Below are positions 12,791-62,173 of a stretch of DNA of 64,000 nt, piece after piece. The position numbers and the translations under genes are program-made. The DNA lies in contig NC_135830.1 in assembly GCF_964213995.1 (NCBI RefSeq), forward strand, positions 19,282,001 through 19,346,000. Direction: 5' to 3'. The notes beneath the pieces are model-generated. The model made no database searches and was not told the DNA's origin. It was given only the letters and a program-made list of their open reading frames with translations. Numbering within the stretch: position 1 is the stretch's first letter; each line of letters begins with the position of its first letter. Source of the DNA: Mustelus asterias (lineage: Eukaryota).

Positions 12791-13205
12791 ATGGATCCGC
12801 CGTCCTTCCATCTTCATCACGACCTGGAACCCCAGAAACTCATGTTAACATTTTGTGAGTTTACATACTTTGTCAATCTCTTAATTGTTCCATTTGGCCT
12901 GAGTAATTTCGAGTTCACAGCCGTTCAATGTGAGGATGAGAGCTCAGAGTCGTTTTTGTCTCAGGAAGGGAAGTGGGTTGAATTGGATTGCGGGCTTCCC
13001 TTTGCTTCTCAGAGTATCATAGCCTGGTACAGGCAAACGCTGACAGAGGGTGCGGATTTCATCAACTGTAGGCATTAGGGAACTGAGACTGCAGGACGCT
13101 GCGTATTGTCCTTCGACAAAGTAATGAAACCCAACAGCATCGCTGCAGATGACAATAGCACCTAGGACGCTCATGTGCATAATTGTGTGCAGAGAAGGCA
13201 CTGAG
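12791..13205 (+). pseudogene. Antigen-receptor V gene pseudogene, TCR alpha/delta-like (leader exon 12791-12854, intron 12855-12920, V exon 12921-13198)
   Basis: Phase-1 66-nt GTGAGT..CACAG intron followed by (S)VQC|EDESSESFLSQEGKWVELDC-x11-WYRQ..GR..SFDK..DAHVHNC, then heptamer-like CACTGAG at 13199-13205. Two in-frame TAG stops, a poorly hydrophobic leader and no clear nonamer. Confidence 0.65.
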
Positions 13206-13639
13206 GAATAGAGAGGGTCCAGTTGCATAACATATTGGCTACTGCAGTGTCTCCCGCTGCATTGTTAAACTTCTCCCATGTCAAGACTTTTAGAAGTACA
13301 GATGACATTCAAATGTATTACATCTCACCATTCAAATGTCAGTGTCGACAGTTACAACGTCGTGAAGCTATATTGTCTGATACATTGCATTGGTATTTTT
13401 TAATTACAACATTGCATGTAAATTGATCGACAAAGAAACCCCACTTCTCGCATATCTAGATGGACATAGTGAAAGAAAGGTTGATTGTAAAGGATTTGTA
13501 CATATTCCCAATCTATTAATTGGCCAGACAGACAGACAGGTAGGTAAGTCGAGAGAGAGAGAAAGAGAGAGAGAACTAGATACAAGGAGCCCCTCTGATG
13601 AAAGTAAAATAACACGAGAATGTTGTGCTCTATTTTTAT

Positions 13640-16553
13640 TTAGTGCTTAAGGCAGCGAGTGAACCTGGTGACGGGCCAGGTCAACACATTCTTCATCTCC
13701 TCTCGGAACTTGGTCTGGGCCACCGCATAGATGAAGACGTTGTTGCAGGAACTGACCACCTGGAGCATGTTGGCTGTCTCCTGGAGGATGTACTGAGGGT
13801 CTTTGAAATCTGAACTGTTAAAGTAGCCCTTGCCTTTAATCCGCACATAGAGGAAGTGTACGACATAGGTGACCCAGAGGAGGAGGAAGCTGAGCGCAAT
13901 AGTGAAGAGGAGGATAATGGACCTCTTGCGGTTGGCCATCTCGGGGTCCCCGTGACTCTCCGAGCCCCGAAGCCTCCTGCGGGCTCTGCTGGCCGCTAAG
14001 ATGTGTCTCACAGTCAGAACGTTGAGCAGCAGAATAAGGAAAAATGGAAAAAAGGGAGTTAAGATGCGGTCCACCCAGTCATAGGCCTTCCAGGCGGGCA
14101 TTGTGAAGTAGGTGGATCTGCGGTCACAGAACCAGGGCACACCGTCCAGGATGTACAAAGGCTGGCAGACAAAGTACAAAGGGGCGTTCTTGGCACAGCT
14201 TAGGGCACAGACTATTCCTATAACCCGCAATGCTGTTTTCTCGGTACAATATCTGGTCTTCAGGCTCTGGCAGCAGATAGCGACAAAACGGTCGATGGTG
14301 AAAGCTACTGTCAGCCATACTGACCCATCCCGGGTCGCAAAGACCAGCACAATGCTCACTGCACACGCTGGGGTGGTGGACAAGACACTGTTAGCAAAGT
14401 AGATGCGGCCAATCCGATTGAGGATGACGGCAGTGATGATGACCAGGAAATCGCTCACCGCTATCGCCACCAGGTAGTAGGTGATGCACCGGGAGAGTCC
14501 GCACCGTCCTCGGGATAAGATTATAATCGCCAACAAGTTGGCTGTGAGAAATTAAAGGAGAGAGATTCACCGAGGGAACTCGAAACACCAACTTCTGCCT
14601 CATCTAATCAGATACTGAATCCTTCCTGAGAAGTTCCTTTGCCACCCCCATATTACAAATCTTCCAAAGCTATCGTCTTTTTTCTACATCCAATGCTGGA
14701 TCAAACGTGTCAATACTGACACGATTAGAATCAGTCCCCACCACAAACTCGGCTATCTGGTCACTGAATTAATCCGAGGAGCTAGCTGTGCAGTTGAAGA
14801 TCATTCGAAATATTTGCTGCCCGTGACTTTTATTTCAGATCAAGTCGCGTCCCTCCATCATTACTATGCTCACTGATCCCATATGTTGAGTCCCATTCCG
14901 GCAATGTCTGGGTTTTAACAATCGAAACATTCGATGTTTCAATTTCCTGCTCTTTCTCCCCCCCCCCCCCCTCCCCCCCCGCCCCCCCCCCCCCCCCCCC
15001 GCGCTGTAACGTTCTACAACGACCTAAGCTCTCAGTTGAACTATAATTCTGCTCTGATGAGCATCCATGGTACTAATCGTTCATTAGTAGCAGTTATGTC
15101 TTGAGCTCTTGAGGACTTCATCTCTGGAATTCCTTCCCTCAGAATTTCTGTTTGTTCTTCCTTCTTTTGGACGTTCATTATCACCTACCTCTTTGATCAA
15201 ACCTTGCGTGAAAATTTACTGAGCCAATTGGTCATGAATTCGTTTGTTAAAGCTCATGGGAAGTATCCTCACCATATGTAATAGAATTTCTGAAGGGACA
15301 AGTATAACTTAGCTTTTTCAAGTGAAAATGACAGATGAACAAAAAAATGTTGGCCTTGCCAGGGACAGCAGCATTCGCTAATTGCTCAAAACGTAATCAT
15401 TCAAAATGTACAAAACCTACCAGTCAAAGACAAAATAAATAATAGCTTAAAATTCTTGAATCCCCAGTTATAGATTTAAAACGTTTCCATCATTAATTCC
15501 GAAGATATATCATGTTCCTTCACTGTCACTGGGTCAAATTCTTGGAACTCTCTTCCTAACAGCACTGTGAGTGGATCTACACCTCAAGGACAGCAGCGGA
15601 GGAGAAAAGAGGACAATTCATCACCACCTTCTCAAGGGCATTAGGAATGCGCAATATATGTTGGCCCAATCAGCGATGCCCACATCTCGTAAGTGAATAA
15701 AAGCAATGAACGTATGTTTGAGCAAAATACGTACAATAAAATAAAATAATGTATTCAAGAGGCGGCTGGATGTAGCACGTGGGGCGAATGGGATCAAAGG
15801 TTACGCGGGAAAAGGAGGATTTGGCTATTGAGTTGGATGATCAGCCATGATCGCAACGAATGGTGCAGCAGTCTCGAAGGGTCAAATGGCCTCCTCCTGC
15901 TCCTATCTTCTATGTTTCTATAAAAATGAAAGTTGGGACAATCCAATATACTGTCACTATTGCATTTTTCCAGTGGACGCACTGTTCATTAGTGTAATCA
16001 CTGAATACATCTCTGCATCTCAACTAATATATAATGCTTACACTGATACCTTTCTGACACGAATAATATCTATGCACGAAAAAGTACTTTGCTGCACCAT
16101 AATACACCATCGTTCCACATGACGCTAACACACTAGATTGCATTTGATTACATTGGCATGAAAATTAATGTTAAAATATAAAACAGATTTTGATTCACGC
16201 AATACCCGATACTACAATTCATATTCCAGTGATTACAAACTATTTCTCTAAATTGCAGCAAAATAATTGCAGTAGTGTCTTGTAATGCCCCACAACGGAA
16301 GTATGATTAATGCACTTTAGTTCACCATAACACGCTGTCATATGTAACTTACGTCTGTATATTTGCCTGGTTGAATTTCCTCACGCAAGCAAAACATTGA
16401 GCACAATCCTAAAAGGGAAAATACAAAATTTATGAACACTTACAAAAGAGAGAATAATTACTTGTTTGTTATCCAGTACTTACCTGGGGCACCAATAGCA
16501 GCAAGAATTGGATAGCAAACAGCAAAGAAGAGGCCATTCACTGGTCCGTGCAT
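13640..16553 (-). CDS. GPR139/GPR142-like class A GPCR, two exons (16484-16553, 13640-14541), 323 aa, apparently intact
   Basis: Exon 1 MHGPVNGLFFAVCYPILAAIGAP G|GTAAGT joins CACAG|CC AAC TTG (phase 1) into ORF 13640-14536. Seven hydrophobic segments, LVAIAVSD (TM2), SVWLTVAFTIDRFVAIC (TM3), RKRSIILLF (TM6), SSCNNVFIY (TM7). Confidence 0.9.
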
Positions 16554-16699
16554 CCTCTTTCAGGAGCTAAAAGAAATCCAGGAGCTCGACTCTGTATTGC
16601 TGCATCAATTTCAAAACGCCCCTCATTTATTCCTCGTGAGAATCTCCAGAGGGATAATTAATTTACAACATACACCTTTGTTACGGTTCTGCGAACAAA

Positions 16700-17890
16700 C
16701 AGATTAAGTCAGGGTGAGGCAGCCAAATGGTTACAAAATTGGCTTGATGGCAGGAGACACAGTGTGGTTGTAGAGGGTTGTTTTTCAAACTGGAGGCCTG
16801 TGACCAGCGGTGTGCCTCAGGCATCGGTGCTGGGTCCACTGTTTTTTTGTCATTTAGATAAATGATTTGGATGAGAATTTAAGAGGCATGGTTAGTAAGT
16901 TTACAGATGACACCAAGATTGGTGGCATAGTGGACATTGAAGAAGGTTATCTCGGATTGTAGCTGGATCTTGATCAATTGGGCCAGTGGGTTGAAAATGG
17001 TAGATGGAATTTAATGAAGATTAAGTCGAGGTGATGCATTTTGGTGGAAGGACTTATTCAGTTAATGCAGTTAATGGTGGGGTGTTGGGGGGAGTTATAG
17101 AACGGAGAGATCTCGGAGTATAGGTTCGTAGCTCCTTGAAAGTGGAGTCATAAGTGGGCAGAATTCTGAAGAAGGCATACGGCATGCTTGATTTCATTGG
17201 TCAGAACATTGAATACAGGAGTTGGGACGTGTTGTTGAAGTTGTAGAAGACTTTAGTCAGGCTATACATGGAATACTGTGTACAGTTCTGTTCACAATAT
17301 TATAGAAAGAATATTATTAAATTAGAAAGAGTGCAGAAAAGATTTACCAGGATGTCCCCGGGACTTAATGGTTTGAGTCAAAGAACAAATAACAAAGAAC
17401 AGTACAGCACAGGAAACAGGCCCTTCGGCCCTCCAAGCCTGTGCCGCTCCTTGGTCCAACTAGACCAATCGTTTGTATCCCTCCATTCCCAGGCTGCTCA
17501 TGTGACTATCCAGGTAAGTCTTAAACGATGTCAGCGTGCCTGCCTCCACCACTCTACTTGGCAGCGCATTCCAGGCCCCCACCACCCTCTGTGTAAAAAA
17601 CGTCCCTCTGATGTCTGAGTTATACTTCGCCCCTCTCAGCTTGAGCCCGTGACCCCTCGTGATCGTCACCTCCGACCTGGGAAAAAGCTTCCCACTGTTC
17701 ACCCTATCCATACCCTTCATAATCTTGTATACCTCTATTAGATCTCCCCTCATTCTCCGTCTTTCCAAGGAGAACAACCCCAGTCTACCCAATCTCTCCT
17801 CATAGCTAAGACCCTCCATACCAGGCAACATCCTGGTAAACCTTCTCTGCGCTCTCTCCAAAGTCATAAGGAGTAGCTGGATAGTCTGAC
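16700..17890 (+). mobile_element. Degraded CR1 RT fragment hosting a younger antisense CR1
   Basis: VPQ-SVLGP / KFTDDTK-like nucleotide motifs with stops; interrupted at 17381-17861. Confidence 0.8.
17381..17861 (-). mobile_element. CR1 3' fragment with AGTCA target-site duplication
   Basis: ORF 17460-17921 gives the CR1 C-terminus; (AAGAACA)n tail; AGTCA at 17376-17380 and 17862-17866. Confidence 0.88.
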
Positions 17891-21817: not shown

Positions 21818-22155
21818 GGGCGGCACGGTAGCACAGTGGTTAGCACTGCTGCTTCACAGCTCCAGGGACCTGGGTTCGATTCCCGGCTTGGGTCACTGTC
21901 TGTGTGGAGTTTGCACGTTCTCCTCGTGTCTGCGTGGGTTTCCTCCGGGTGCTCCGGTTTCCTCCCACAGTCCAAAGATGTGCGGGTTAGGTTAATTGGC
22001 CATGCTAAAATTGCCCCTTAGTGTCCTGAGATGCGTAGGTTAGAGGGATTAGTGGGTAAATATGTAGGGATGTGGGGGTAGGGCCTGGGTGGGATTGTGA
22101 TCGGTGCAGACTTGATGGGCCGAATGGCCTCTTTCTGTACTGTATGATTTCTATG
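21818..22155 (+). mobile_element. HE1-like V-SINE inserted in the LTR element
   Basis: Near-consensus head, V-domain and TTTCTATG tail. Confidence 0.92.
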
Positions 22156-22249
22156 AAAATAATTTTAAAAAGCAATAAAGGAAACAATACATCAATAGGG
22201 TATATACAAAACGAAGGGGAGGGGCACCAGTCTAGTAATTGTGTTCTGG

Positions 22250-22795
22250 CTAAATCCACCACGACTGGTCCCAATTCGTAGTGTGTGTGTTGAATAATAT
22301 TTTCCCTGTATGTTTTAGTATCAACCCGTTTTGAGGCCCTGGGGTGGTTTCGGGACAAGTGGGGATGGGTGTGCTAACAGTTGGTCTTAACCCATTCTTA
22401 ATTTCATAGTATATGTACTCGTTCTGAATAACCTTACCAGGGCACTTCTTTCCTAATTCCAGCACTTTTTCTGGGCCATTGGCTACACAGGCTAACTCCA
22501 TTCACACATGGTTAGTGTACGCCCATCAATCACTAATGGGGGCCGTCCTTAGGGAGCAGTAATCAGAGTTCCCATTATCTTTCCTGTACAACACTCTTTG
22601 GTTGTTACACCCATAGGTAATGCTCTTATTGGGGTGTACCCAGAGGATGCCATCCTCACATTTGCCTGCAACAGGTGGGGTGAACCACATATATCGGGGG
22701 TATTGGAAGTTGATTTTCTGGTCTTCAGTTGGTGTGGCGTCTGTGGTTCGGTCTGAGACGAGGTGTCCCAGATACCAGAGAAGTATGAAGTTCAT
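22250..22795 (-). pseudogene. env-like or accessory ORF remnant of the LTR element
   Basis: ORFs 22526-22810 and 22250-22501 share one frame, split by two TGA codons. Starts MNFILLWYLGHLVS (signal-like) 1 nt after a TCTCCCCCAG acceptor; Cys-rich; lies between integrase and the PPT. Confidence 0.45.
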
Positions 22796-23227
22796 TCTGG
22801 GGGAGATCAAGGTAGCACCTGTTAATTCTTATTAATACCTGATTCTCTTTTCCTTTTCATTACTAGAATGTGGTAAGACTCCCCTCTTTTCTTAAAAAAA
22901 AACAAAGATATAAGGAAATGAATACTAAAGGCCCAATAGTGTCATACGAAGAGTTGGTCGGCAATCAGTGTTTAATGGGGCTCAGTGGGGTGAGGAGTTT
23001 GCAGAGCGTGAAAATAAAATGTTGGGCATGTGGCATGTGTCCTTGTTGTTGGAGGACAATTGCACAGTATAAACAATAGATTCTTCATCCACAACCAAAC
23101 TGTGGTGTGTTGGAAGATTATGGCACAGTGCAATGTGGGCAGATAAGAAACCGTTTTCAATTGTGTGATGTGTGGAGTGGACAGATAAAGCTATTTACAA
23201 TTTGGACTGTGATGTCCTGATTCTTCC

Positions 23228-26200
23228 TTAGTGGAGGGAACCTACTTGGGCGGGCTTTGGCTGCCGGGTACCCACTGCGTTACCACCTCCGGTAGTGAGC
23301 GCTGGGTCAAACGGCTCTGGGAGTCCCAGTACCAGGGGCGCCATAGGGGGTAAGGTTTGCGGGTGCCCCATTCTTTTCGCCGGTGTCCCCTGGGCCGGGG
23401 TTTTATTCCTGAAGCCCTGTAGAATGGGGCTGGAACCGAGGATGCGTGTGCTGGTCCTGGGGATACCGGGTGGGGGTCGATAACCTGGGGTACAGGTTGT
23501 GAACCTGATTTGGGTCCGGTGGTATGGGGTGAGGGTTGGGGCTCCTTTGTGGCTCAAAGACGTCTCCGAGTGACGTGGTGTTGGTGAAAATTTTGATGGG
23601 AACCGAATGCCTTCATTTGGTTCATATGGTACCAACCCGGCTTTCTTGTGGTCTCCCATGACCTTGTCTACCAAAGGGTTGGCCTTATCTACCACTAGAT
23701 AAGGTCTGGCATATTTGGGGGACAAGATCGTATCAGGCTGGAAGACTCTGAGCATTGCCTGTTGCCCAACCTCCTATTCGATGTGTTTTACCTGACCATC
23801 AAAGTAGGCCTTACCTTGCTGCTTCCGTTTGCCTATCTTAACGGCTGTAGCCCGTTGTGCGGCCTGTATGTTTTCCAGGATGGCTCTCGCGGCATTCTCG
23901 TGGGTGAGGGTCGTGATTTCGGGCCCGGACAGATCCAACGCAAGTAAAGGTTCAATTCCTCGCATAGGTTGCCCGATCATGAGGACAAATGAAGGGGTGG
24001 CGGGGGGTGAATCCGGTGGAACTAGATACGGAATTGCACACTGTCATTAATATGAAGGGGAGGAGTTTGTTTCAGGAGGGATTGTTCTGCTGAACGGTCT
24101 TCCGGATCATATCTTTGAGGCTACGGTTCATCCTCTCTACTATACCCCTAGATTTGGGGTGGTAAGCAATGTGGAATTGTTGCTTTATCCCCACCAATTC
24201 CATTACCCTTTGCATTACTTGGGCAGTGAAGTGAGTGCCCTGGTCCGAGTCGATGCTGCGGGGAAGGCCCCAGCGAGTGACTATGTGCTACACTAGGATA
24301 TCAGCCGTGACCTTGGCTGTGTTCGTGCGGGTTGGAAAAGCTTCCACTCATTTACTAAAAGTGTCTACAATGACCAGAATATATTTGTAACCTCCCACTC
24401 CGGGCGGTACGGGACCAATATAGTCAATCTTGGGATTTGTTCAGGGACCTTCCACAGGGCAAGTGTGCCTCAGTTCCCCTTTGCGGGAATGTTTATCAGG
24501 ATTGTTCTGTGCGCAGATGATACAATTATCCACGTAATGCCGCACGTCCTGTTCTAGGTTTGGCCACCAGCACAATTCTTTGATTCGCTCACTTGTGGTT
24601 CCTGCCCCTTGATGGCCCTGGACATCGTGGTTTTGGAAAATGATTTGGTTACGGTCCCTGGTTGGGACCACTATCGGTCGTCCTTAAGGACAGGCCCATC
24701 CTGTACCGATATTGCGACTCGCCATTTTTCAAAGGAGGCGGGGTTTGCCCTTTCCTGAATTTATTTCAGGTCCTGGTCACTGATCTGGGCTTGCTTTGGG
24801 TCTTCGACCATGGTCTGGCTAACAGTTACGGCATCAATTCGCTCTGTAACTATTGGTTGCCAAAATTCCCCCTCTCGAGCAATCTGTTTGGCTAATTCAT
24901 CCGCCCTTATGTTTCCAAGTAGGGAGGTGCGGTGTTGGGCCTTTACTTTAATTATGCCATATTCCTGGTTTTGGGCAGCCTGGAAAATAAATCTTAACAG
25001 TGGGGCTGATGGCAGAGGTTTCCCATCTGCCAATACGAATCCTCTTGCTTCCCATAGGGGCATGAAGTCAGTTAAACTGTTGCAGACATACATGCTATTG
25101 GAGTGTATGTCTGCGGGTGTGGGGAACAGGTCAGGGTGGCTGACTACATATGCTATCGCTGCCAGTTCTGCAGCCTGTGCACTCATGTGTGCTGGACGTT
25201 TTAAGGCTATCTCCCTCAGGGGCTTGCCTTTTTGGTCTTCCACATATATCCCACATCCTGACCTCCTGTTTCCCTCTTCCACCATGGATGACCAATCTAC
25301 AAAGATTTTTTAACTGTCCTGAGCCTGGGTGTGGCTGATTCCTCTGGCTCCCCCCCCCCCCCCCTTTTATTTGGCAAAAATGGTCCCTTGGGGTCTTTTA
25401 TAGCTGGAACCTGACATTCATGGCGCTCGCCCACCCCCCCTCCCCCCGACCCCCCCTCCCACCCCGTAGGTTAGGTTGTCTGACAGGAATGTCGGGACCA
25501 GGTCTGTTTGACCGCAATCCTTCGATCCTGTAACATGAGTCTCCACTGTGCTTTCCGGTTTTGACTAACATTCCCATGTTTAATTCGACCGTGAAGCAGT
25601 AGTTGTACGGGGGTGTATTGTGTAAATACAGTCATAGAGCTGTAGAAGTGTAGAGCATGGAAACAGGCCCTTCGGCTCAACTTGTCCAAGCCGCTCTTTT
25701 TTTAAACCCCTCAGCTAATCCCAGTTGCCCGCATTTGGCCCATATCCCTCTATACCCATCTTACCCATGTAACTTTCTAAGTGCTTTCTAAAAGATAAAA
25801 TTGTACCCGCCTCTACTACTACCTGTGGCAGCTTGTTCCAGGCACTCACCACCTCTGTGTGAAAAAAATGCCCCTCTGCACACTTCTGTATCTCTCCCCT
25901 CTCACCTTAAACCTATGCCCTCTAGTTTTAGACCCCCCTACCTTTGGCAAAAGATATTGACTATCTAGCTGATCTATGCCCCTCATTATTTCATCGACCT
26001 CTATAAGGTCACCCCTCAGCCTTCTACACTCCAGAGAAAAAAGTCCCAGCCTATCCAACCTCTCCTTATAACTCAATCCATCAAGTCCCGGTAGCATCCT
26101 AGTAAATCTCTTCTGCACTTTTTCTAGTTTAGTAATATCTTTTCTAAATAGGGTGACCACAACTGTACACAGTATTCCCAAGTGTACAATGTCTTGTACA

Positions 26201-29200
26201 ACTTCAACAAGACGTTCCAACTCCTGTATTCAATATTCTGACCAATGAAACCAAGCATTCTGAATGCCTTCTTCACAACTCTGTCCACCTGTGACTCCAC
26301 TTTCAATGAGCTATGAACATGTCCCCCTGGATCTCTTTGTTCTGTAACTCTCCCCAATGCCTTACCATTAACTGAGTAAGTCCTGCCCTGGTTCAATCTA
26401 CCAAAATGCATCACCTCGGATTTATCTAAATTAAACTCCATCTGCCATTCGTCAGCCCAGTGGCCCAATTGATCTAGATCACGTTGCAATCGTAGATAAC
26501 TTTCTTCACTGTGCCACCAATCTTCGTGTCATCTGCAAACTTACTAACCATGCATCCTATATTCTCATCCAAATCATTAATATCGATGACAAATAACAGC
26601 GTTCATCCCTGAGGCACACTGCTGCTCACAGGCATCCCGTTTGAAAAACAACCCTCTAAAGCCACCCTCTGGCTTCTGTCAAGAAGGCAATTTTGTATCC
26701 ATTTAGAGACCTCACCCTGGATCCCATGGAATTTAACCTTATGCAACAACCTACCATGAAGTACCTTGTCAAAGGCCTTGCTAAAGTCCATGTAGACAAC
26801 ATCAACTGCACTGCCCTGGTTACTTTCCTGGTTACCCCTTCAAAAAAACTCAATCAAATTTGTGAGACATGATTTTCCACTCACAAAGCCATGCTGACTG
26901 TCTCTAATCAGTCGTTGCATCTCTAAGTGCCTGTAGATCCTGTCTCTCAAAATACCTTCCGACAACTTACCACCACAGATGTGAGGCTCACTGGCCTGTA
27001 GTTCCCAGGCTTTTTCCTGCAGCCCTTCTTAAACAACGGTCAACATCTGCCACTCTCCAATCTTCAGGCACCTCACCCGTGACTATCGATGATCCAAATA
27101 TCTCTGCCGGGGGCTCGCAATTTCTTCCCTCGCCTCCCACAATGTCCTGGGATACACTTCATCAGGTCCCGGGAATTTATCTACCTTGATGCACTTTAAG
27201 ACTTGCAACCTCTTTCTCAGTGATATGTACACTCCTCTAGACATCACTATTTATTTCCCCAAGTTCCCTAACTTTCATGCTTTTCTCAACTTGCCCTTCA
27301 CTCTAAGAGGAATGTGCTTACCCTGAACCTTAGTTAACACACTTTTGAAAGCCTCCCACTTACCAGACATCCCTTTGCCTTCTCACAGACTCCCCGAATT
27401 AACTTTTGAAAGCTCCTGCCTGATACCATCAAAATTGGCCTTGCCCCAATTTAGAATTTTAACTTTTGTGCCAGACCTATCATTCTCCATGGCTATCTTA
27501 AAACTAATGGAATTATGGTCACTGGTCCCAAAGTGATCCCTGACTCACAAGTCTGTCACCTGCCCTTCCTTATTTCCCAAGAGGAGGTCAAGGTTTGCCC
27601 CCTCTCTAGTCGGGCCATCCATATCCTGAATGAGAAATTCCTTCTGAATACACTCAACAAATTTCTCTCCATCCAACCCTCTAATACTATGTCCCAGTCA
27701 ATGTTGGGAAAGTTAAAATCTCCTACTGTTATCATCCTATTTTTCTGGGAGCTATCTGTAATCTCCTTACATTTTTACTCCTCAGTTTCCCGCCGACTAT
27801 TTGGGGGCCGATAGTACAACCCTGTCAAAGTGATTTCCCCTTTCTTATTTCTCAGTTCTACCCATATAGACTCAGTGGCCGAACCCTCGGATATATCCCC
27901 TCTCAGTACGGCCATGATATTTTCCCTAATCAAAAATGCAACTCCCCCTCCTCTCTTACCTCATGTTCTATCTTTCTTCTGGCATCTGTACACTGGAACA
28001 TTGAACTGCCAGTCCTGTCCCTCCCTTAGCCATGACCTGACTTCATCTGCCTTGCCCGTCAGGCCTCTTGCATTGAAATAAACGCAGTTTAAGCTGGACT
28101 TCCCTTGCTCTCTGTCTTTCTTTTGCCTGATCTGTCTGGTACTCGGATTACTGACACTGCCTTTACTGCTTAATGTGCTCTCTTTAATTTCTGTGCTGTC
28201 CTCAAATTTTTCTTCTGTCTCCTTAATGCTTTGGATCCCACCCCCCTGCCAAACTAGTTTAAACCCTCCCGAGTGGCTCTAGCAAATCTCCCCGCCAGGA
28301 TGTTAGTCCCCCGCCAGTTCAGGTATAACCCATCCCTCTTGAACAGGCGGCCCCTTCCCCAGAAAATATCCCAATGATCCAAAGATCTAAATCCCTACCC
28401 CATGCACCAGCTCTCAAGCCACGCATTCACCTCACGCATAGCGAGAGGGTTCGAGCCGACTTTGTAGTTAAAGCGGTGCACTGCCCAGAAAACTGACCAT
28501 AAGTGGGTTTCGCACATTGAAAAATTTCGTTCCACTGGAGTTGGTATGCGGGAAGCATAAGCGATTGGGCTGAGTCATCCGTGCCGTTCTTGGAGGAGCA
28601 CGGTAGCTAGTGTGCTGTCAGTGGCTGCTACTTCAAGGGCAAAAGGGAGTTCAGGATTGGTTACCTGTAAGGCAGGGGTTTGTGCAAGGGTGTTTGAAGT
28701 CTGAAACTGCTTGTGCGTGTCGCGCAGTCCAGACCCATGGGATGTATTTTCGTAAAAGTTCGGACAGGGGAGCGGCTTTAGTGGCGAAACCGTCTATGTA
28801 GTTCCGGCAGTACCCCACCAAGCCTAGAAAGGAGCGCAACGAGCTCACGTTCTTTGGTAAGGGAAGGTGTGTTACAGACTCGATTCGCTTCCTTTCTATC
28901 TCGTGCTTTCCCTCAGTCACTACTGTACCCAAGTAAGAGACCTGTCGTCTCATGATCTGGGTTTTCTTGGGATTTACCTTTAATCCTAATGTAGTGAGGA
29001 GGTTGGGCGGTTCATCCAATCATTTGAGATGTTCCCCTCTTGTTTCAGTCTGTAAGAGGAGATCATCTACGTATTGTACCAAACATTCTGGTTTGGGAAT
29101 CCCTCCAAGCCCTTCGCTAAGCGTTGGTGAAATATGGAGGGGGAGTTATGAAAACGTTGTGGTAAACACGTCCAGGTGAACTGTTGTCCCTGGAATGTGA

Positions 29201-29765
29201 AGGCAAACTTGTATTGACAGTGGTGATCTAAGGGAATTGACCAGAAGCCGTTACTGATGTCCAACAGTGTGAAAAGCTTTGCGTGTAGGGCTTGTTTCAT
29301 CATGGCCTCTGGGCCAATCGCCTCTGTGGTGGCTGTGATTGGGGTGGTCTGATTTAGGGCTCGATAATCAATTGTGAGTCTCCATGAACCGTCCGGTTTC
29401 CTTACCGGCCATATGGGGGAGTTGTTAGTGGAAGCTTGTTTTAATAAACTGCTAATCACATTGGCCACTTCCCCTTCGGCTTGCTTAGGGAAGCTGTACT
29501 GTCTTTGGGGTTTAGGGTCAGGACCTTCTATGATTACCTCCCCTGTTATTCGGCCACAGTCATGCTTGTGACTGGCGAATGCCTACGTGTGTTTGGCTAA
29601 TATGCCCTGTGCTTCAGGGTCCTCCGTCATTTCTGTGGGCCTGATCCACAATTTTCCAAAAGTAGAGATTCTGTCCACACACCTGCCGGTGGCCACCTCG
29701 ACTGGGGATTGACAAGTGGTTGGCATTAGCCAAATACAACAATTCGCGGGATCAAACGATAGCAA
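23228..29765 (-). mobile_element. Defective pol of a retrovirus-like LTR element (RT, tether, RNase H, integrase), split by a CR1 at 25631-28438
   Basis: RT: NSPIWPVRKPDGSWRLTIDYRALN, LDISNGFWSIPL, LPQRFHNSP, QYVDDLL (~29055-29075), LRSFLGLVGYCR. Tether: PFALEVAAT..VLLQ..PIAYASR. RNase H: KIFVD..SAQAAELAAI..GNIRADELAK. IN: HHCC zinc finger, QIDYIGP, SDQGTHF, GIVERMN, GPY-like PKYARPY. Confidence 0.9.
25631..28438 (-). mobile_element. CR1 LINE including ORF1 esterase C-terminus, endonuclease remnant and RT (internally deleted, degraded)
   Basis: ORF1-like EVNAWLESWC..DHWDIFWGR..DGLYLNWRGTNILAGRF at ~28255-28435; RT fragments 25846-26853; CR1 3' UTR at 25631-25850. Confidence 0.88.
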
Positions 29766-29770
29766 ACGAT

Positions 29771-30030
29771 GGGCGGCACGGTAGCACAGTGGTTAGCACT
29801 ACTACTTCACAGCTCCAGGGACCTGGGTTTGAATACCAGCTCGGGTCACTGTCTGTGTGTAGTTTGCACATTCTCCCTGTGTCTGCGTGGGTTTCCTCCG
29901 GGTGCTCCGGGTTCCTCCCACAGTCCAAGGATGTTCAGGCTAGGTTGATTGGCCATTCTAAATTGTCCCTAGTGTCCCGGGATGCATAGGTTAGAGGGAT
30001 TAGTGGGTAAATATGTGGGGATATGGGGAT
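29771..30030 (+). mobile_element. HE1-like V-SINE, 3'-truncated
   Basis: Head and V-domain present; sequence breaks off after GGGGATATGGGGAT. Confidence 0.88.
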
Positions 30031-31969
30031 AACTTTTGTGGGTTAAAATAGGGCAGCTGGAATACAAAGTAAAAATAAAATGTGATTATATTTAAGTAAA
30101 AGTCATATACATGTCTGAATGTTTCCATCCAGTCACTTAAAGTTTGTTGTTTAACATTGATTCAGTGTCAGGGTGATTTACCTAAACCCCAATTATTTCA
30201 GCAAGTTCTAAGTAGAACCATGTTTTGGATTATTGAAAACAGTTTTTAACCATTTCAGTATAGAGTGCAGCTAATTGCCAAGAAAACTCACTAACGATTA
30301 GCAAATCTTGCAATATAATATTAATGCTAACAAATCAATATAAATGACCTCCCACAATTGAGGATTATGCCGGCGAGCAAAATAACAAAGGCTTTAGAGA
30401 ATTTTTAACGGCACCTGAAATGAATTTAGAAAACAATGCATCTATTTGCTCAGCTCCATAAGGTGTTTCGTCCTTGATTACTTTGCTGATTGCATTTAAT
30501 CAGTTTCAATGTAAGTATTTCCTGGGTTGTTTAATTATTACCTTGACACTGAATCTCTATTACGGACATTAAGCTACCCCCAATCTGTTATATTCGATCT
30601 GGTCATTATTTTAGCGAAACTGCATTTTGTTCAGTTTTCTATATTTCATGCATACTGCAAGTAATAGCTGATAGTCGAAACAGGATCGGTAAATTTTAAA
30701 GAGGTTATGGAATTATTGTTGTCATAAGTTGATCATTGATCAACTAGAATCAAACAGATCGAATGAAATTGACAGATTGAACAGATCCATCTGCTGGGAA
30801 CTCGATTGTTTTACCCTTTGTGTCCTGTTTTGTGCCAGTGGCCATTGTGTTGTGAGCAGGAATTTTCCAGCTTGTTTGTAAACCTTCTGGTTCGTTCTCC
30901 TGTATTGCAGGGAGTAAAAATGGATTTATTTTTCACTAAACTTGCATCTGCGAGGCATGCAAAAGTTTGACTTGATGTTTGGCCAGGTGCCTCAGAAATT
31001 CCATTTCTCACTCAGATTGTGACCATCAGAAAGAACAATTCAGAAACGACAGACAGACTGTAGAAGCAGATTTGATTGATGTATCTCTCTTGTGAATGTT
31101 TGGTTAGGCAATGCATTGAGATATTTATTCACTCTTATTCCGTACTCGAGCAGTCCTTGACCTTTTCAATGTGGTAGTGTGAGAGAGAGTGCGTGTGTCT
31201 GACAGAATGCACCTGATCCGGTGTTTTTTGCAATTATTACTTTTAAATCCACCCTTCCAACATTTGACATGGATTTGCCAGGGTATGAGAGGGAGTTTTA
31301 CTCGATATCTTAAAAGGCCCGCAGGACATTTTCCCCGCAGAGGTTAACCAAACTGAATCAGCATCGCACTAACTAACTGTGAGTTCCAGAACCTGACAAT
31401 AAATTATTCCGCTGCTTGTGTGAAATGACGCACGTTAGTTGATTTTAACAATCTTTCTGAAAAATGCGCACGTTTATTTCGATGAAGTAATTATGTTCAA
31501 GAATTTTGATCATCAGAAAGTCATTGAAAGCGTGTGAGGTGAACTTGAGCACAGTTTCAGAACAAACAGTCTCTGGAAGTGACGGTGATGCTCCAGAGAG
31601 CATGGTCTGTTCAGAGTTGATAGGAAGCTGCCAGTTATTTTGACAACTTAAATGACTATTGGTGTGACTCTCGCTCCAAATAATCGTCCTATTGAGCTAA
31701 TGTGTCTGAAAATATTAAATTGTTTTTTAAAATTTCACGGTCTGGCAAAAGCTGGAGTGCGGTCCAATTACCCATCTCTGTCACAACTCAGTGCAATGTT
31801 ATTGAAATATATTTACGTGAAAGATTTAAATATCTGTCCTACCCCTTGGCCCACGGGCCATAATCTACTCATTTACTCACCGCCACTCACTGTGAGAGTG
31901 GGTGAGAATGCGTGTGGAGCGTGAGAGTAATTTAGAATAGGAAGACTTGAAAAGTGAGCCAGACAGACA

Positions 31970-32830: not shown

Positions 32831-32849
32831 CCAGAAAGCTGCAACTAAA

Positions 32850-35327: not shown

Positions 35328-35641
35328 GTCCGAAAGATGACACACCTCGAACCGTTCTCCTCACCGTGAGTTTCAATGAAGAAAGCACAAGCAGCAAATT
35401 TGCAACCATCGCCTGTTCAATCATCGATTTCTATCCGAAGTCAGTGACGGTGAAGTGGCTAAAGAATGGACAGCCGATGGATTCAGGAATTGTCACATCT
35501 CCTGCCTGGGAAGTGAAGGGGAACTTCTCGGCGAGCAGTCGGCTGACAGTCTCCGCTGGGAATGGTTCAACAAAGCGGTCTTTACCTGCCAGGTCACTCA
35601 TCAAGGGCTCACCCAAAGTCAGAACATCACCGGAACTTGGG
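35328..35641 (+). pseudogene. IGHM: IgM heavy chain Cmu2 exon (frameshifted)
   Basis: AAG|GT..G|GTGAGG exon reading [79 protein letters not shown], a C1-set domain closely matching shark IgM CH2. One G is missing at 35558-35560 (314 nt). Confidence 0.9.
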
Positions 35642-36460
35642 GTGAGGGACACAAACAGATAAACAACAAATCATTTTGCACTCCGATGTTAATCAAAATC
35701 ATGAATGCATTGAAGTTAGTACAAAGCACAAAACAACTTCTAATTCTCCGCCATGTAGTCTGTTGCCATTCTGATTGAAATACCGTATTAGGATTGCTCA
35801 CCAGTCAGGTTTCATCACATCACCAAAGAATGTTTCACTCTACATCCAGGTCACAGAGTGAGAAGGCTGGACTTGATATCATCTTAACCCTCAGACAGCT
35901 AGTAGTATTTGGAGAGACTGTGTGTGTCAGGCATTTTTTTACAGGTAACAGCTGAGGGGCAAAGTATTGCGAACTTCGTCCATTTTATATATAAATTAGG
36001 GTTAAGTAATGCATTCCTGAGATCAGGAATGGTATATTTGTATTGCGAACGCTGCTGTGCTGATTCATTGCAATGATACCGGGGCTGAACAACTTTAACA
36101 GTGAGAATAGCTTTGAGAGACCAAGCTGATTTTCCATGACGTATCGCATGCTGGACGGTTGGTTAGCTCACTTGGCTGGACAGCTGGTTTGTGAGGTGGG
36201 GTTAACACCAAAATTGTGGTTTCAATTCTTAGGCCAGTTGAGGTTATCCATCTTAACCCTATCCCGCGCCTGAGGTGTAGTGATCATCTCCAGACAGTGT
36301 TCCTCTCAAAGGTAAGAGCAGCTTCTGGAACTGTAGCTTCATTCATGGAATATTAAGGACGGTAGTGAAAGATTGGTGTCCTTTAGAGAGTGAAGGTTAA
36401 GTTTTGACGTCCTGGTGCATGAAGATGGGACTTTGACTAATTTCGATTTTTGTTTCATAG

Positions 36461-36890
36461 ATCGTTCCGGGTGCAGTGAACCCAGTGTCACTCTGCTGCC
36501 TCCACCAACAGAACAGATCTTACTGGAGGGCGACAGTAACCTTGAGCTGCATCATTTCTAATGCTCGTTATGGAGTCAATGTGTCTTGGGTCCAAGAGAA
36601 GAAGAATTTGAAATCAGAAATTTCCTACCAGCCAGGAGAGGATCTTGACAGCGTGGTTAGCTACTTAAATATCTCAACACAAGCCTGGCTGAGTGGGGCT
36701 GTGTTTGAATGCGTGGTGAGCCATCAGGATCTGCCGATTCCATAGAACCATAGAAAATTACAGTTCAGAAACAGGCCTTTTGGCCCTTCTTGTCTGTGCC
36801 GAACCATGTTTTGCCTAGTCCCACTGACCTGAACTTGGACCAATAGAACCATTCTATTTCCTTTAAGGAAGTCCATCCACACGAAAACAG
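36461..36890 (+). pseudogene. IGHM: IgM heavy chain Cmu3 exon (frameshift plus LINE insertion)
   Basis: TAG|AT..G|GTTAGT exon reading [64 protein letters not shown][insert]LRKSIHTKT, matching shark IgM CH3. Extra G at 36528-36530. Confidence 0.9.
36741..36860 (-). mobile_element. 120-bp CR1 3'-tail insertion inside the Cmu3 exon
   Basis: CATAGAACCATAGAA tail and ACAGGCCTTTTGGCCC stem; flanked by TTCC; introduces TAG at 36743-36745. Confidence 0.85.
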
Positions 36891-37391
36891 GTTAGTCAAG
36901 AGATTTCAACGATAAATGAGTCACTGTGCCTTTTTCCAGTGTAAACGTAAGGGTCGGCATTCAGTATTCAATACCTTTCTCGTGCTCTCTGATTGATTAT
37001 TCCACTAACGAAAAGCTCTTGATCTGTATATTTTAAGAAGGAAATTGATAAGGAGATTAGTGATCAATTCATTGAAAACTATGCATTTTAATGGAGAAAG
37101 GTAGGAGAAGATTGGTGTGGAGATTAAACGCCAACACACAACAGTTGGGCCAAATGGTCTGCTTCTGTGCAGTAAACTTACTGCAACTTTCTAGTGCAAT
37201 CCCCTAAGTTCTCAGAGAAAAGGATTGTGTTCAGTTCTCTCTGAGCTGCGAAACCGGGCAGATCCAACATGGAAAATGAAAAACATCAAAATCTAAAACA
37301 AACACATTCCTCTCACTTCTGACCAGTGGTCTCTGGAACACTGACTCTGGAATTCTCCAGTTTAATTATGGTTATTCTCCATTTTCTGCAG

Positions 37392-37774
37392 CTAACAATC
37401 CTCGGGAGCCGTGCGTCTCTGTCCCCCTGCCCTCGGTGGAAGAGGTCTCCGCTCAGAAATTCAACTCCTCAGTGAGAGGTTTCTCCCCGCGAGAGATCTT
37501 CGTCAAGTGGACGGTCAATGGCAATGCGGTGAATTCTGGGAACTGCAAGAATACCGAGGTGATGGCGGAGAATGGCAGCAGCTTCTTCTTCATGCACAGC
37601 CTGTTATCCATTGTAGCAGACGAGTGGGACGGCGGCGCTTCTTACTCATGTGTGGTGGCACATGAAGCCATCCCCTTGAAGATCATTACCAGAACGGCTA
37701 ATAAATCCAGCGGTAAACCTAGTTTTGTGAAAATTTCCCCAACACTGGTCGACACCGTTAATTCATATCAATGA
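37392..37774 (+). pseudogene. IGHM: IgM heavy chain Cmu4 plus secretory tailpiece exon
   Basis: GCAG|CT start, then [82 protein letters not shown]. The first Ig Cys is lost by a short deletion. Internal TM donor AGCG|GTAAAC after 37712. Confidence 0.9.
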
Positions 37775-41750: not shown

Positions 41751-41999
41751 ACACTCGCACTCTCCACTAGAGGGAGGTGAAAGGACAATCATTAACACAG
41801 CACATTATCACTGACTCGTTACATTTTCGGTTTACAACTCACTATCCGGCCGAAGGCTCCAACTATTGCACATGCGAATGACCTTCTACACATATATATA
41901 TATATTATATAGATTCTATGCATCGTAGTATTTTGCTAAAAGTCTTGTCACAGTTAATCACATTTCAACAGATTGAATTCTAATAATCAATCCTATTGG

Positions 42000-42563
42000 C
42001 AGTGGCGGATTTGGCTGAGTAGGCTTAAGCCTAGGGGCCCGGAAGGGAGGGGGGCCCGGGATCTGGCAAGAGATCGACTGCACGAGGTGTATCCAAATAC
42101 ATACATTTGCTTTAGAATTTATCTGTCCTTAATGATCACTAACTGTTCAGTTGAGTGTTCATTTTCGGCACTGAAGAGGATCAAAATCTATTTGCGCTCA
42201 ACAATGAGCGATGAGAAACTTAGTCATCTGGCACTTATGCACATTGAATCAGACATGCTTCGATCTGTTGATTTACATGCTGTTATCGACACTTTCGTAA
42301 ACCAAAAAACACTGAAGCTTTTTAAAGTACAAATGTAAAGAAAATGAAAAATAAATGAATAAAAGGGCTGTAATTGATTCATATAACTTTATGATATTAT
42401 ACATGTAGGACATTACACATAGTACAACGATGTAAGTTTTCTGACGTCACCTAACGTCATTTTATTCTATTCAACGAAGGGTGGGGCAGGGTGCAGGGGG
42501 CACGGTCAGGGGGCCTTGCTAAAGCTCAGCCTAGGGGCCCGGGTGGTAGTTAATCCGCCACTG
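42000..42563 (+). mobile_element. hAT (Tip100/Zaphod-like) internally deleted DNA transposon
   Basis: Perfect 12-bp TIR CAGTGGCGGATT..AATCCGCCACTG; perfect 8-bp TSD CCTATTGG (41992-41999, 42564-42571); hAT C-terminal dimerisation motif YPN..RIYL..TNCSVECSFSALKRIK.YLRSTM..EKLSHLALMHIE. Confidence 0.93.
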
Positions 42564-42858: not shown

Positions 42859-42991
42859 NNNNNNNNNNNNNNNNNNNNNNNNNNNNNNNNNNNNNNNNNN
42901 NNNNNNNNNNNNNNNNNNNNNNNNNNNNNNNNNNNNNNNNNNNNNNNNNNNNNNNNNNNNNNNNNNNNNNNNNNNNNNNNNNNNNNNNNNN
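42859..42991. other. Assembly gap (133 N)
   Basis: Run of N. Confidence 1.
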
Positions 42992-55804: not shown

Positions 55805-55932
55805 ATTCCACAGAATACATTTGGAACGAAGACTATGAAGATGATAATGGCAACATCTGGACAACCGCTGCCACATTCATCACTCTGTTTGTCTTCAGCA
55901 TTTTCTACAGAACTGCAATCACTCTGGTGAAG
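55805..55932 (+). pseudogene. IGHM: IgM transmembrane exon TM1 (open frame)
   Basis: CATAG|AT..AAG|GTAAGA exon reading (D)STEYIWNEDYEDDNGNIWTTAATFITLFVFSIFYRTAITLVK, with an acidic spacer and antigen-receptor TM motif. Phase matches the Cmu4 donor at 37712. Confidence 0.9.
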
Positions 55933-56070: not shown

Positions 56071-56079
56071 GTCGAGTGA
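56071..56079 (+). pseudogene. IGHM: IgM TM2 exon (V-E-stop)
   Basis: Polypyrimidine tract plus TACAG|GTC GAG TGA, 138 nt after TM1; gives cytoplasmic KVE instead of the canonical KVK. Confidence 0.8.
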
Positions 56080-58635: not shown

Positions 58636-59502
58636 CCAGCGTAAATAGACTCCAGTCGCTTTTGAGCTTCCAAACAGCAGCAATATCAGGCGTTTCGGTG
58701 AGAAACACGTCAGCCTCATGAATGTTGGATGCTGATGGGCAAATGTGTGGTGATCTTTAAATTTAAACTCATTACCGAATTAACTAACGATGCAGTTGGA
58801 TTTCTGGACAACTGATATTCCTGCAATTTCAAACAAATCTCGTGAGATGCGATTCAGCCAATTGAGATGGTCCTCGTTTATTTCCACCTGGTTCTCGTGA
58901 GTTCAGAAGATCGTGTTGGATCAAATAGCTTTTGAGACTGCCTCTTGCTTCTCTTGTGTTAACAGTGGCCTCCTTGGAATATCCCAAGTCGAGGAGCTGA
59001 GTGCGGTGGAGGAACAAATGTTTCAAATCGAGTGCAATGTGTACCCCTGTCATCGGGATAGGAACATGTGTTACCAATAGTTACCTGACGAGGGAGCAGA
59101 AGATAGATAGAGTGACATTATACGGATAGGCCGATTAGCAGAGGAACAGATAGATAGATAGACGCATGGATAAATTACTTTGTTCTTTCCTGACTCACAA
59201 GCACTATCTTTAATTTTACTTCAATACATAATTCTGCCTGCTTTACTGCTGATTTGGCAGCTTAGCGTTGTCACCTGGAGGGATTTCAGAACTTGATTAT
59301 TTGCTGAACTGATGGAAAAAGCATTTTGCTTCTTTACCGCATCACAATCGCCTCTATCAAATTTCTAGTTTTGTGCAGACAGTTCTTTACATTATCCCTT
59401 CTTCACATTGAGAGATGGAAGAGCTGGCGGATGGTTTCAAGTATATGTGAACAAGGAGACAAGGTCCAGCACTATCACTGCTAAGGAGTTCAATTGTGAG
59501 AT

Positions 59503-59810
59503 AGGGCGGCACAGTGGCACAACGGTTAGCACTGCTGCCTCACAGCGCCACAACCCAGGTTTGGTTCCAGGATTGGGTCAACATCTGTGCAGTGTCTGCA
59601 CGGTCTCCCGTGTCTGCGTGGATTTCTTCTGGCTGCTCTGTTTTTCTCCCACGGTCCGAAAGATGTGCTGGTTAGGTGCACTGTCCATGCTTAATTCTCC
59701 CTCAGTGTACCCGAGCAGGCGCTGGAGTGTGGCGACTAGGGGATTTTCTCAATAACTTCAATGCAGTGTTCATGTTAGGCTACCTGTGACACTGATGAAT
59801 GAACTTAAAA
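59503..59810 (+). mobile_element. V-SINE, second subfamily
   Basis: GGGCGGCACAGTGGCACAACGGTTAGCACTGCTGCC head, V-domain and second-type tail. Confidence 0.8.
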
Positions 59811-60904
59811 AAAAACATGTTGTGGTGTACTTCAGTGCAGTGAGGCACGGGATAGTGTCCAAACCTGATCACGAGTTCGATGGTACTAACGTCACTAACT
59901 TAGTAGAATGATATCTGGAATAGGAAGCCAACCTCAGTAATTGTAATCATGAAACAGTCATATTTTTGCCCTTCAATGTCATCTGCGTGATTCATGTCCT
60001 TTGTGGAGTTAGATCTGTCACTGTTAACTGGCCTGACATCTATTTGGCTCCAATATGTCATTGAATCTTTACTGTCCGTTGAAATGACCTCGCAAGTTAA
60101 AATCATTAACATATATAATTAAATGTGAATTGTATATCTTGCAAGTTACTCAATAGAATCAAGTATAGTTTTCGTTTACTTAAAGTAGCTATTCCTCTCA
60201 CAATGTCACATCAAATTGGGTCTGATCGAAGGAGAATCTCGCTGTATTTGTCCCTGCTATAGCTACTCCTGCAGTCTTTGCTGGTGAGTGCAGAGAGAGA
60301 TTTAACCTGTAGCTTTTTCATTCTCTATCTACCTTTAAAATGTTTTATGGGACAGTCCAGGGGAAACTTTATTCGGTATCCAAAACGTGTGCGGGATTGA
60401 TTCTGGAAGAGAGCGAGTGGACAGAGTGGACGGGAACATTTCTTGTATCACATCAGTCCAGTGCCTGTTTTTACAGTGTTTGATAGAGCAAATAGGGTCA
60501 GATTTATTTCGGTACCTAATCAATGTTGTTCCGGATTGACATGTTTGGTTCTCTCTGGTTCTTTCTGCCCTCTCTTCTATTTATGACCACCGGCTCGTGT
60601 GCTTCTTGTATGTGCAAGAGTTTGTGAGCCGGTATATCTGTTGAACTGGAAGAGTTTGGAAATTACATTCTGATATTGGAGCTTAGTTCCGCATCTTGTA
60701 AAAATAATGTTTTTGGTTTCAAAAGGGTTAACAAAACATGCCTGTTCAGTGACTGCAAGTAACATCGGTCCCCATAGATCTCCGCTTATGCCACCAGAGG
60801 GGTTTTCCTCCTCTATTAATAAGGAAACATTTTCGATGTGTCATTCCTCAATGTGGGTGACACCATCACCCCCGGCACGAACAGGGATCAGCCGCTGCAC
60901 AGAG

Positions 60905-62173
60905 ATGCTGAAAATGGCGAAGAGTCTTTCATTAAACGGACAGATAACAAATTTTCTCATTGAAGTTCAGGAGGTTTTGTACCCCACTCTGGCTGTTATT
61001 GGTGTTCCGGGTAAGTCTCTGCATCCAGCTATTAATTAGACGAGGTGCGTTTTAACACGATTAATATCCTTGTCATTTAGTATCTCCTCCCTGCTATTCG
61101 TGTTTCTGGTGATTTTATCGATACAATTGTTAATTCCCGAAATTGTGTACTTTATTACTGTTCCCGTCTGTTTTACGACTGCCGATTCACACACTACTGC
61201 TGTTTTAGCACTGATTTCGCTATGGGTATGAGATCAATGAATACAGAATGTTTTTTTTTCCTTCCATGCAGTTAACTTGCTGACGATTGTAATCCTGTGC
61301 CGGGGTAAATGTGGTCTCTCCAAATGTGTCACTTGCTATTTGGTGGCCATGGCAGCAGCGGATCTACTGGTCGTTATCATTGACCTAATATTGAGGCACA
61401 TTCCTATTGTTTATTGGAAACAGTTTAGTTTTGTATATGCTATCCATGTGTGCAATATTCACGCTGTCCTGCTTTATGCAGCAACAGACTGCTCGGTCTG
61501 GTTCACTGTCAGTTTCACTTTTGATAGATTTGTCGCAATTTGTTGGCAGAAGTTGAAAGATAAATATTGCAATGTGAAAATCGCACTTGTTGTCTTGGGG
61601 ACGGTGACAGTGCTGAGTGCCTTCAAGAATATTTTCTGGTATTACATGCTGTCACCGAGATATTGGCTTATCAATTTCCCCTGGTTTTGTGAGGTGCGAA
61701 GTGGCATTATGGAATCTCAGGTCTGGGCAACAATCGAATTCCTTCATAATATCTTTACTCCGTGTGTCCCATTTGTTCTGATTTTGCTGCTCAACAATTT
61801 AACCATCAGACATGTATTAGTGGCCAACAGAGCCCGAAGGAGACTCAGAGGTAACAGCAGTGGAGAGCGTACAAGTGACCCAGAGATGGAAAACCGAAGG
61901 AAATCCATCATTTTGCTATTTGTCATCTCAGCAAATTTCATATTATTTTGGACAATGTTTATGGTGTATTCTGTATGGTGGCGAATGTGGGTTTTGGGGT
62001 ATGAATCTGTATGGCTTCCTGAGTTTGTATTGGAAATGGGCTTTATGCTGCAGCTTGTGAGTTGTTGTACAAACACTTGTATTTATGCTGTGACCCAGAC
62101 TAAGTTTCGAGAGGAATTCAGGAATGTGGTGACATATCCTATTACCGTGTTTGTAAAATTAATTAAACGATAA
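60905..62173 (+). CDS. GPR139/GPR142-like class A GPCR, two exons (60905-61010, 61272-62173), ~335 aa, apparently intact; start codon uncertain
   Basis: Exon 1 MLKMAKSLSLNGQITNFLIEVQEVLYPTLAVIGVP G|GTAAGT, 261-nt phase-1 intron, GCAG|TT AAC TTG into ORF 61277-62173. LVAMAAAD, SVWFTVSFTFDRFVAIC, RRKSIILLF, SCCTNTCIY; AATAAA at 62410-62415. Further in-frame ATGs exist upstream. Confidence 0.9.

Follow-up and report, generated by a model that had tools for sequence, protein, structure and literature searches.

An outlying island of the shark IgH/TCR-alpha/delta complex with a dead V segment and an IgM relic between two intact orphan G protein-coupled receptors

Genes and features of the window

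The stretch of DNA analysed here (the window, 64,000 nucleotides) is C71:19,282,001-19,346,000 of the shark Mustelus asterias, C71 being a 20.43-Mb contig of the 3.68-Gb genome. Numbered from the first letter of the window, its features are:

1..116, plus strand: 3' end of a broken P2Y/EBI2-like GPCR, the third copy of a tandem trio
12791..~13234, plus strand: TCR alpha/delta-type V pseudogene (leader 12791-12854, V exon from 12921) with two in-frame TAG and a decayed 23-RSS
13640..16553, minus strand: GPCR-a (exons 16553-16484 and 14541-13640), open, 323 aa, two exons, 7tm_1 E 1.4e-20
16620..16701, minus strand: proximal promoter of GPCR-a, with a putative forkhead-like box at -148, a putative homeodomain site abutting an Ebf-like site at -107 and a TATA-like box at -77
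21818..30031, minus strand: decayed LTR retroelement between GPCR-a and the IgM relic, with an LTR pair 89.7% identical and RT and RNase H fragments
30066..30862, plus strand: remnant resembling the J-Cmu1 intron of an intact IgM cluster (67-69% identity to the cluster at C71:5.11 Mb)
35328-35641, plus strand: Cmu2 of the IgM relic (35328..37774), with a frameshift
36461-36890, plus strand: Cmu3 of the relic, with a frameshift and an insertion
37392-37774, plus strand: Cmu4 of the relic with its secretory tail, first Cys lost
42859..42991, no strand: 133 N inside the Cmu4-TM1 interval, a masked stretch or an assembly gap, which look alike
55805-55932, plus strand: IgM TM1, 76% identical to TM1 of an intact cluster
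56071-56079, plus strand: IgM TM2
60905..62173, plus strand: GPCR-b (exons 60905-61010 and 61272-62173), intact, 335 aa, two exons

The V segment is a TCR alpha/delta-like pseudogene, as a first-pass annotation of this DNA had proposed. In addition to its stops and decayed 23-RSS, the leader is decayed and the RSS heptamer destroyed; with the stops read through as X the best PDB matches are TCR V domains, at a weak E of about 1e-3. Its closest genomic relatives (40-42%) are open V exons with a good 23-RSS, judged against the consensus signal, and lie inside TRAV/TRDV-type arrays, where the layout of split leader, Cys-Trp-Cys spacing and 3' 23-spacer RSS that has decayed in the window is intact. 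Two stops, a lost heptamer and a position 3' of TRAC in the same orientation argue against rearrangement or expression of the window's copy.

An IgM pseudogene reaching from Cmu2 to TM2, which the same annotation had reported, is also present, with Cmu2 and Cmu3 frameshifted and Cmu4 lacking its first Cys. Cmu1, J, D and VH are absent from this relic, which leaves only the Cmu2 to TM2 part of a V-D-D-J-Cmu1-4-TM minicluster. We regard the Cmu2-Cmu4 and TM exons as likely, rather than certainly, one gene because Cmu4 and TM1 are 18 kb apart, as compared to 3.3 kb in an intact cluster, with the N stretch between them.

GPCR-a and GPCR-b are ~48% identical, and both are class A (7tm_1) members of the same large family. 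GPCR-b starts 4.8 kb past TM2, where a second receptor had been placed. It is single-copy, the next best genomic match being 73% identical; the catshark has an orthologue, P0003, at 85% identity that shares its N-terminus. A third receptor had been thought to end at position 116, and here the annotation has to be corrected: the gene is neither GPR139-like nor intact. Stops and frameshifts lie upstream, base 116 ends a premature stop (114-116) beyond which homology continues, and an intact paralogue from the trio has GPR183 and P2Y4 as its best PDB matches.

Position within the antigen-receptor complex

The ~20 Mb of C71 carry IgM clusters intermixed with TRAV arrays. TRAC is found on it at 18.419 Mb, which places the window 0.86 Mb 3' of TRAJ/TRAC. 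Twenty-five J segments were counted in the 50 kb fetched around TRAC; the J array was recovered from this flanking sequence, as an exact RSS-plus-FGxG pattern for TRAJ was too strict and gave 0 matches. Of 150 scored matches in a Cmu4 search, 105 are clear IgM; 26 of these are on C71 and the others on 51 smaller contigs. IgM clusters are therefore on the same chromosome as TRAJ/TRAC, and TCR-alpha/delta-type V exons lie between the IgH clusters. The accessible text of PMC12227049 describes the elasmobranch AgRC in like terms: IgH and TCR genes are mixed on the TRAC-bearing chromosome, where TCR-alpha/delta V exons lie between IgH clusters and where IgM clusters, IgM pseudogenes and C-only relics are also present. 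Linkage of PSMB5, IgW, IgNAR and UrIg2 is a further mark of that complex.

One TRAV family is spread over C71 from 4.7 to 19.45 Mb, and TRAV matches as a whole reach 19.47 Mb. The island that holds the window, at C71 19.22-19.47 Mb, has ~35 V matches, two IgM relics and five GPCR genes, and ~30 TRAV-type matches start no more than 15 kb from the window's end. Between TRAC and the island we sampled roughly a quarter of the sequence, as twenty 10-kb pieces, and found no V, Cmu or GPCR. We read the window as an outlier of the shark IgH/TCR-alpha-delta complex, an island with a dead V and an IgM relic between its two intact orphan GPCRs. This bears out the suggestion that the window belongs to a TCR-alpha/delta-IgH superlocus, with TRAJ/TRAC on the same contig and TRAV-type matches near the window's end, although the complex as such was already published (PMC12227049, in its accessible part). 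Extending the sequence toward TRAC and DAD1, as had been proposed, found the first but not the second: DAD1 maps to C7, another chromosome, and is rejected as a flank of the complex. We note that a second TRAC is present on a small contig, and that weaker C1 matches occur at C71 0.75, 0.98 and 2.92 Mb.

A large family of orphan receptors

The receptor family has a conserved motif at the end of TM3, of which an exact search found at least 1,816 copies genome-wide (0 with a reversed control). Since 177 of 239 fetched family proteins have this motif, the family total may be ~2,400, pseudogenes and haplotype duplicates included. Its arrays are spread over many chromosomes; those on C4, C5 and C8 account for 99 of the first 100 motif sites listed. 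The nearest solved relative is human GPR139 (PDB 7VUG), with GPR139 and GPR142 the closest known receptors and GPR139 the database name of the shark proteins. The match reaches only E 1.2e-7, however, and the database name is therefore a best-hit label. GPR139 is highly conserved and brain-expressed, according to the accessible text of PMC12208981. The shark family matches it weakly, is without NPxxY and runs to at least 1,816 motif copies where an orthologue would be conserved and of low copy number; judged by match strength and copy number, the family is not orthologous to GPR139. Both of the genes first annotated in the window as intact and GPR139-like are open two-exon class A frames.

Large, clustered, of birth-and-death type and variable on its extracellular face, the family has these properties in common with a chemosensory repertoire. 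The srw chemoreceptors of nematodes are likewise a birth-and-death expansion, in their case from the FMRFamide/myosuppressin receptor group, with ligands that are only speculated in the accessible part of PMC2576165. Among the Atlas neighbours of GPCR-a are FMRFamide-receptor-like clusters and others that bear Srw; the shark expansion is independent. Listings of the openly searchable literature gave no report of a GPR139-like expansion in sharks or cartilaginous fish, and the bamboo shark genome paper and a GPR139 review were without a relevant term.

A receptor clade resident in the complex

The relatives of GPCR-a, unlike those of GPCR-b, are concentrated in the complex. GPCR-a has 39 paralogues at 72-79% identity, 36 of which are on Cmu-bearing contigs, as compared to 3 of 130 best matches for GPCR-b, and at least 43 of the top 131 family matches lie along the whole of C71, on both sides of TRAC. 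Five of 14 clade genes on C71 are within 30 kb of a Cmu4, where 1.2 are expected (p 0.006; five were reached in 0 of 20,000 circular shifts); this count includes the window's own GPCR-a, and becomes 4/13 without it, the p value being for 5/14 only. More distant C71 paralogues (56-63%) have no such excess (2/24 within 30 kb vs 2.1 expected). The idea that these receptors lie closer to Ig/TCR segments than chance, put to the permutation test that had been suggested for it, thus holds for the GPCR-a clade and fails for GPCR-b.

The IgM beside these genes is of a particular kind. Divergent or broken Cmu4 copies, a class set post hoc from bit score and stops, have a clade-gene neighbour in 14 of 23 cases vs 2 of 82 for main-type Cmu4 (5/8 vs 0/18 on C71 alone), in counts that are not independent because many small contigs look like haplotype duplicates. 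This bias could come from age alone, with old blocks holding old IgM and old GPCRs and the main IgM type amplified recently.

The clade reaches well beyond Mustelus. In a quick tree of 62 chosen rows it has support 100 with genes of seven other shark genera included, and GPCR-a groups with catshark and basking shark genes at support 99. All three white-shark clade rows are on a 20,355,162-bp contig, the same size as that bearing LOC121270132, the TCR-alpha gene model of the white-shark complex on chromosome 27. A single contig also holds most clade rows in the basking shark (6/6), the whale shark (10/10) and the zebra shark (5/6). The epaulette shark, with 18 listed rows over 10 contigs, some >100 Mb, counts against residency. 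Over eight copies the clade dN/dS is 0.23, with 0.32 in extracellular loops vs 0.20 elsewhere; by this codon measure the clade receptors are under purifying selection. Such a clade, resident in the complex and co-duplicating with it, is new here and was not found in the searchable literature. Neither it nor mixed duplicated blocks are described in the AgRC as published in the accessible part of PMC12227049: that text is without "GPR" or "G protein", and neither supplement contains "GPR139" or "coupled receptor".

Duplicated blocks that carry receptors

Besides the window, 14 pairs of a clade gene and a Cmu less than 26 kb apart were found, of which 10 were fetched; a match to the window's orientation at C160/C447 was counted separately. 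A unit made of an IgM 3' end and a tail-to-tail receptor is present in three C71 copies, at 4.65, 11.81 and 11.87 Mb. These have intergenic DNA in common (82-90% identical between the 4.65 and 11.81 Mb copies), their receptors and constant regions have diverged to the same degree (GPCR 89-93%, Cmu4 88-91%), and they group together in both the GPCR and the Cmu4 trees. To this extent the trees are congruent, as a shared history had been predicted to make them; the deeper branches of neither tree settle the matter. The remaining fetched pairs have other orientations and no spacer in common with the three units. A second kind of block, three TRAV and one GPCR, has five copies on C71, four of them 99.6-99.9% identical; all five receptor frames are open, and one TRAV is stopped in four of the five. 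A third lies just upstream of the window, where an IgM relic and a P2Y-like pair are collinear with C110 over 24 kb at 71-88%. The C110 block has Cmu1 to TM1 present and its GPCR broken, which counts against the view that relics decay while receptors are kept. The earlier statement that the receptors stayed intact as the immune genes decayed is true of the clade's neighbours but cannot be generalised, since intact-type clusters make up the majority of IgM and there are broken GPCR copies.

The window itself is another case. Its GPCR-a has only the gene and promoter in common with other clade copies, and as its flanks are unique, without a match in those copies, no cassette origin is shown for it in either shared intergenic DNA or shared order. 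Of the 22 non-self matches to the V, 13 loci were fetched, none of which had a GPR139-like gene within ~5 kb, and V plus GPCR was rejected as a repeated unit. GPCR-b was likewise rejected as a cassette member, having no close paralogue and so few best matches on Cmu-bearing contigs. The proposed co-duplicating cassette can thus be retained for the clade elsewhere on C71, where intergenic DNA is shared and trees agree, but not for the window. What we see is a number of different block duplications that carry receptors, and not one fixed cassette.

The promoter of the clade

The factor names given to the promoter elements come from resemblance. The promoter is conserved in 7 of 7 aligned clade copies, and between -150 and -101 five lineages are 70-72% identical, as compared to 13-40% upstream of -200. 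The putative homeodomain site abuts a pyrimidine-run/purine-run element and is, in its purine/pyrimidine pattern, like the mouse Lhx2/Ebf composite probe (PMC5608512, accessible part), with the Ebf half degenerate. A promoter profile had a match upstream of 4 of 20 further family genes (4/11 a-type, one of them off the complex on C12, and 0/9 b-type), exon 1 being recovered by regular expression for only 5 of 20 test genes; no downstream control came below E 0.1, and the profile was not found upstream of GPCR-b. A promoter pattern matched at 29 sites, and 25 of these were upstream of clade genes; as the pattern derives from the clade genes themselves and its reversed control gave 270, we did not use it as enrichment. 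Generic motif counts are weak: Ebf-like sites number 6 vs 1.7 (fraction of shuffles 0.04), and homeodomain sites are not enriched. Eight promoters contained no octamer. Ebf is also a B-cell factor.

Origin and upkeep of the arrangement

The best explanation, in our view a reasonably probable one, is that the window is an island of the complex whose relics are sheltered by selected receptors, and that these receptors are independent of lymphocyte rearrangement, a chemosensory role being the foremost of several possibilities. The complex grows by segmental duplication, as the copies on C71 and C110 document, the blocks carrying whatever they contain, be it an IgM 3' end and a GPCR, a TRAV trio and a GPCR, or IgM and a P2Y-like pair. 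Spare Ig/TCR pieces in such blocks would decay while the receptor is kept, since selection presumably acts only on complete V-D-J-C clusters and on V segments that can still be used. Deleting a block would be costly where a selected receptor gene lies beside the relic, and this is the likely reason why the relics persist. That the receptors act independently of lymphocyte rearrangement is the least certain step.

Alternatively, the clade might be an immune receptor set, of leukocyte or lymphocyte GPCRs, that shares chromatin or enhancers with IgM and TCR-alpha/delta, the linkage itself being selected. In favour of this, the residency is both strong and ancient, IgM here also co-duplicates with another GPCR family, of EBI2/P2Y type, large arrays of the orphan family are on a contig with MHC class II, a UrIg-like gene and IgL clusters, and the Ebf-like site could serve B cells. 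We nevertheless consider this unlikely, given that clade genes avoid main-type IgM clusters (2/82), that their orientation and distance to Cmu vary, that the octamer is absent from the eight promoters, and that this layout of the promoter is also found on C12, outside the complex.

A slightly less likely alternative again is neutral co-residence, whereby the clade originated on this chromosome and then expanded through local duplications, nearness to relics reflecting common age and giving no protection. Tandem spread alone explains residency; the family has arrays on many chromosomes, the arrangement in the window is unique, and the 56-63% paralogues on C71 are no nearer Cmu4 than chance. It fits less well with the several 3'-truncated IgM pieces that end near an intact receptor and have lasted to ~10% divergence in three copies. 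The anchoring step is the sole difference between neutral co-residence and the explanation that we prefer, and for the sheltering of relics a common age of old blocks is the chief alternative.

We think it very improbable that the island is mis-joined or that the duplicates are uncollapsed haplotypes, notwithstanding the N stretch at 42859 in the 18-kb Cmu4-TM1 interval, the near-identity of four TRAV-GPCR blocks and the second TRAC on a small contig: run X1, which may itself have been the source of the assembly, has short-read contigs that agree with the V stretch without a difference and cover TM1 to GPCR-b in near-identical tiles interrupted at repeats, a related organism has the unique DNA between TM1 and GPCR-b at ~90%, blocks at 71-93% identity cannot be haplotypes, and TRAV segments between IgM clusters are reported in four other species in the accessible part of PMC12227049.

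Possible function and comparison with mammals

On present features we would give a chemosensory role of the receptors, for amino acids or peptides, not quite an even chance; some other function is rather unlikely, and a role as leukocyte receptors a little more so. The sensory role is modestly favoured because of the olfactory-like promoter, the variable extracellular face and the srw precedent. The top-50 list for catshark olfactory tissue contained no GPCR, and the three sequencing runs consulted behave as DNA.

This leads us to speculate, as a bolder and doubtful proposal, that sharks have ~2,000 undescribed GPR139-related chemoreceptors, one ancient branch of which, with an Lhx2/Ebf-type promoter, would have been in the complex since before the carcharhiniform/lamniform split, amplified with antibody and TCR blocks and sheltering relics. 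If this is true, the mammalian OR/TCR-alpha pairing has been repeated with an unrelated family, which points to a common chromatin logic for receptor arrays and rearranging loci. A clade that duplicates with IgM/TRAV blocks would also be a dated marker of the growth of the complex and of why constant-region-only relics are common. Expression of the clade, immune or sensory, should be readable from existing multi-tissue RNA data, which would test the function of the giant family. Sharks are reported to have 6-13 OR and 8-43 V2R genes (PMC10116579, accessible part), so a sensory answer would change the picture.

The first-pass annotation compared these receptors with the olfactory receptor genes at mammalian TRA/TRD, of which there are two or three, at the 5' V end (PMC4574546, accessible part). 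As an analogy this survives: like OR10G2 and OR4E2, the shark genes are two-exon or compact class A GPCRs among TRAV, and the promoter element in the shark is olfactory-like. By convergence, the shark receptors would occupy the place of the OR genes at mammalian TRA. The likeness does not extend further, as the shark receptors belong to another family, are copied with IgM and TRAV pieces, and are spread over the whole chromosome and on others, DAD1 is unlinked, and the window lies 3' of TRAC rather than at the 5' V end.

Immune genes and GPCRs on shared contigs

A second kind of mixed block, in which IgM is accompanied by a pair of P2Y/EBI2-like GPCRs, was found in the M. asterias genome (G000) both on the contig of the window (C71:19,252,000-19,282,150) and on a further contig (C110:874,000-910,000), and the two blocks are collinear, at 71-88%. 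The pair lies 10-30 kb 3' of a Cmu4 in five of six loci, and this GPCR family is small, its 13 matches of >40% identity all being restricted to C71 and the IgM-bearing contigs. Dense arrays of the GPR139-like family, for their part, share contig C8 with immune genes that were named by inspecting their translations, and the contig carries at 1.85 Mb a VJ-C gene of UrIg-like type, at 34.4-34.7 Mb alpha- and beta-like exons of MHC class II, and at 50-51 Mb clusters of IgL.

TRAV array and a second TRAC

Twelve near-identical TRAV segments stand in tandem at C71:19,363,800-19,397,200, with a spacing of ~2.4 kb. Since this array lies 3' of TRAC and on the opposite strand, its arrangement is one from which the segments could join by inversion. 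Another TRAC was located on a small contig that also carries TRAV, and represents either a haplotype duplicate or a true second locus:

C546:240162-240416, second TRAC

Decay and mobile elements

In a related organism (sequencing runs X2 and X3) a 2-base deletion falls within TM1 at window position 55883, so that the IgM relic is undergoing decay there as well. Mobile-element remnants were identified in the window and upstream of the island of V segments, IgM relics and GPCR genes, the last of those listed coming from an ORF scan:

window 21818-30031 (-), decayed LTR retroelement with an RT fragment and retroviral-type RNase H, LTR pair 89.7% identical
window 41958-42335 (+), hAT transposase C-terminal fragment, beside the N stretch
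C71:19,227,500-19,228,900, retroviral fragments, envelope-like and broken, lying upstream of the island

The LTR retroelement immediately adjoins the IgM intron remnant, standing directly before it.
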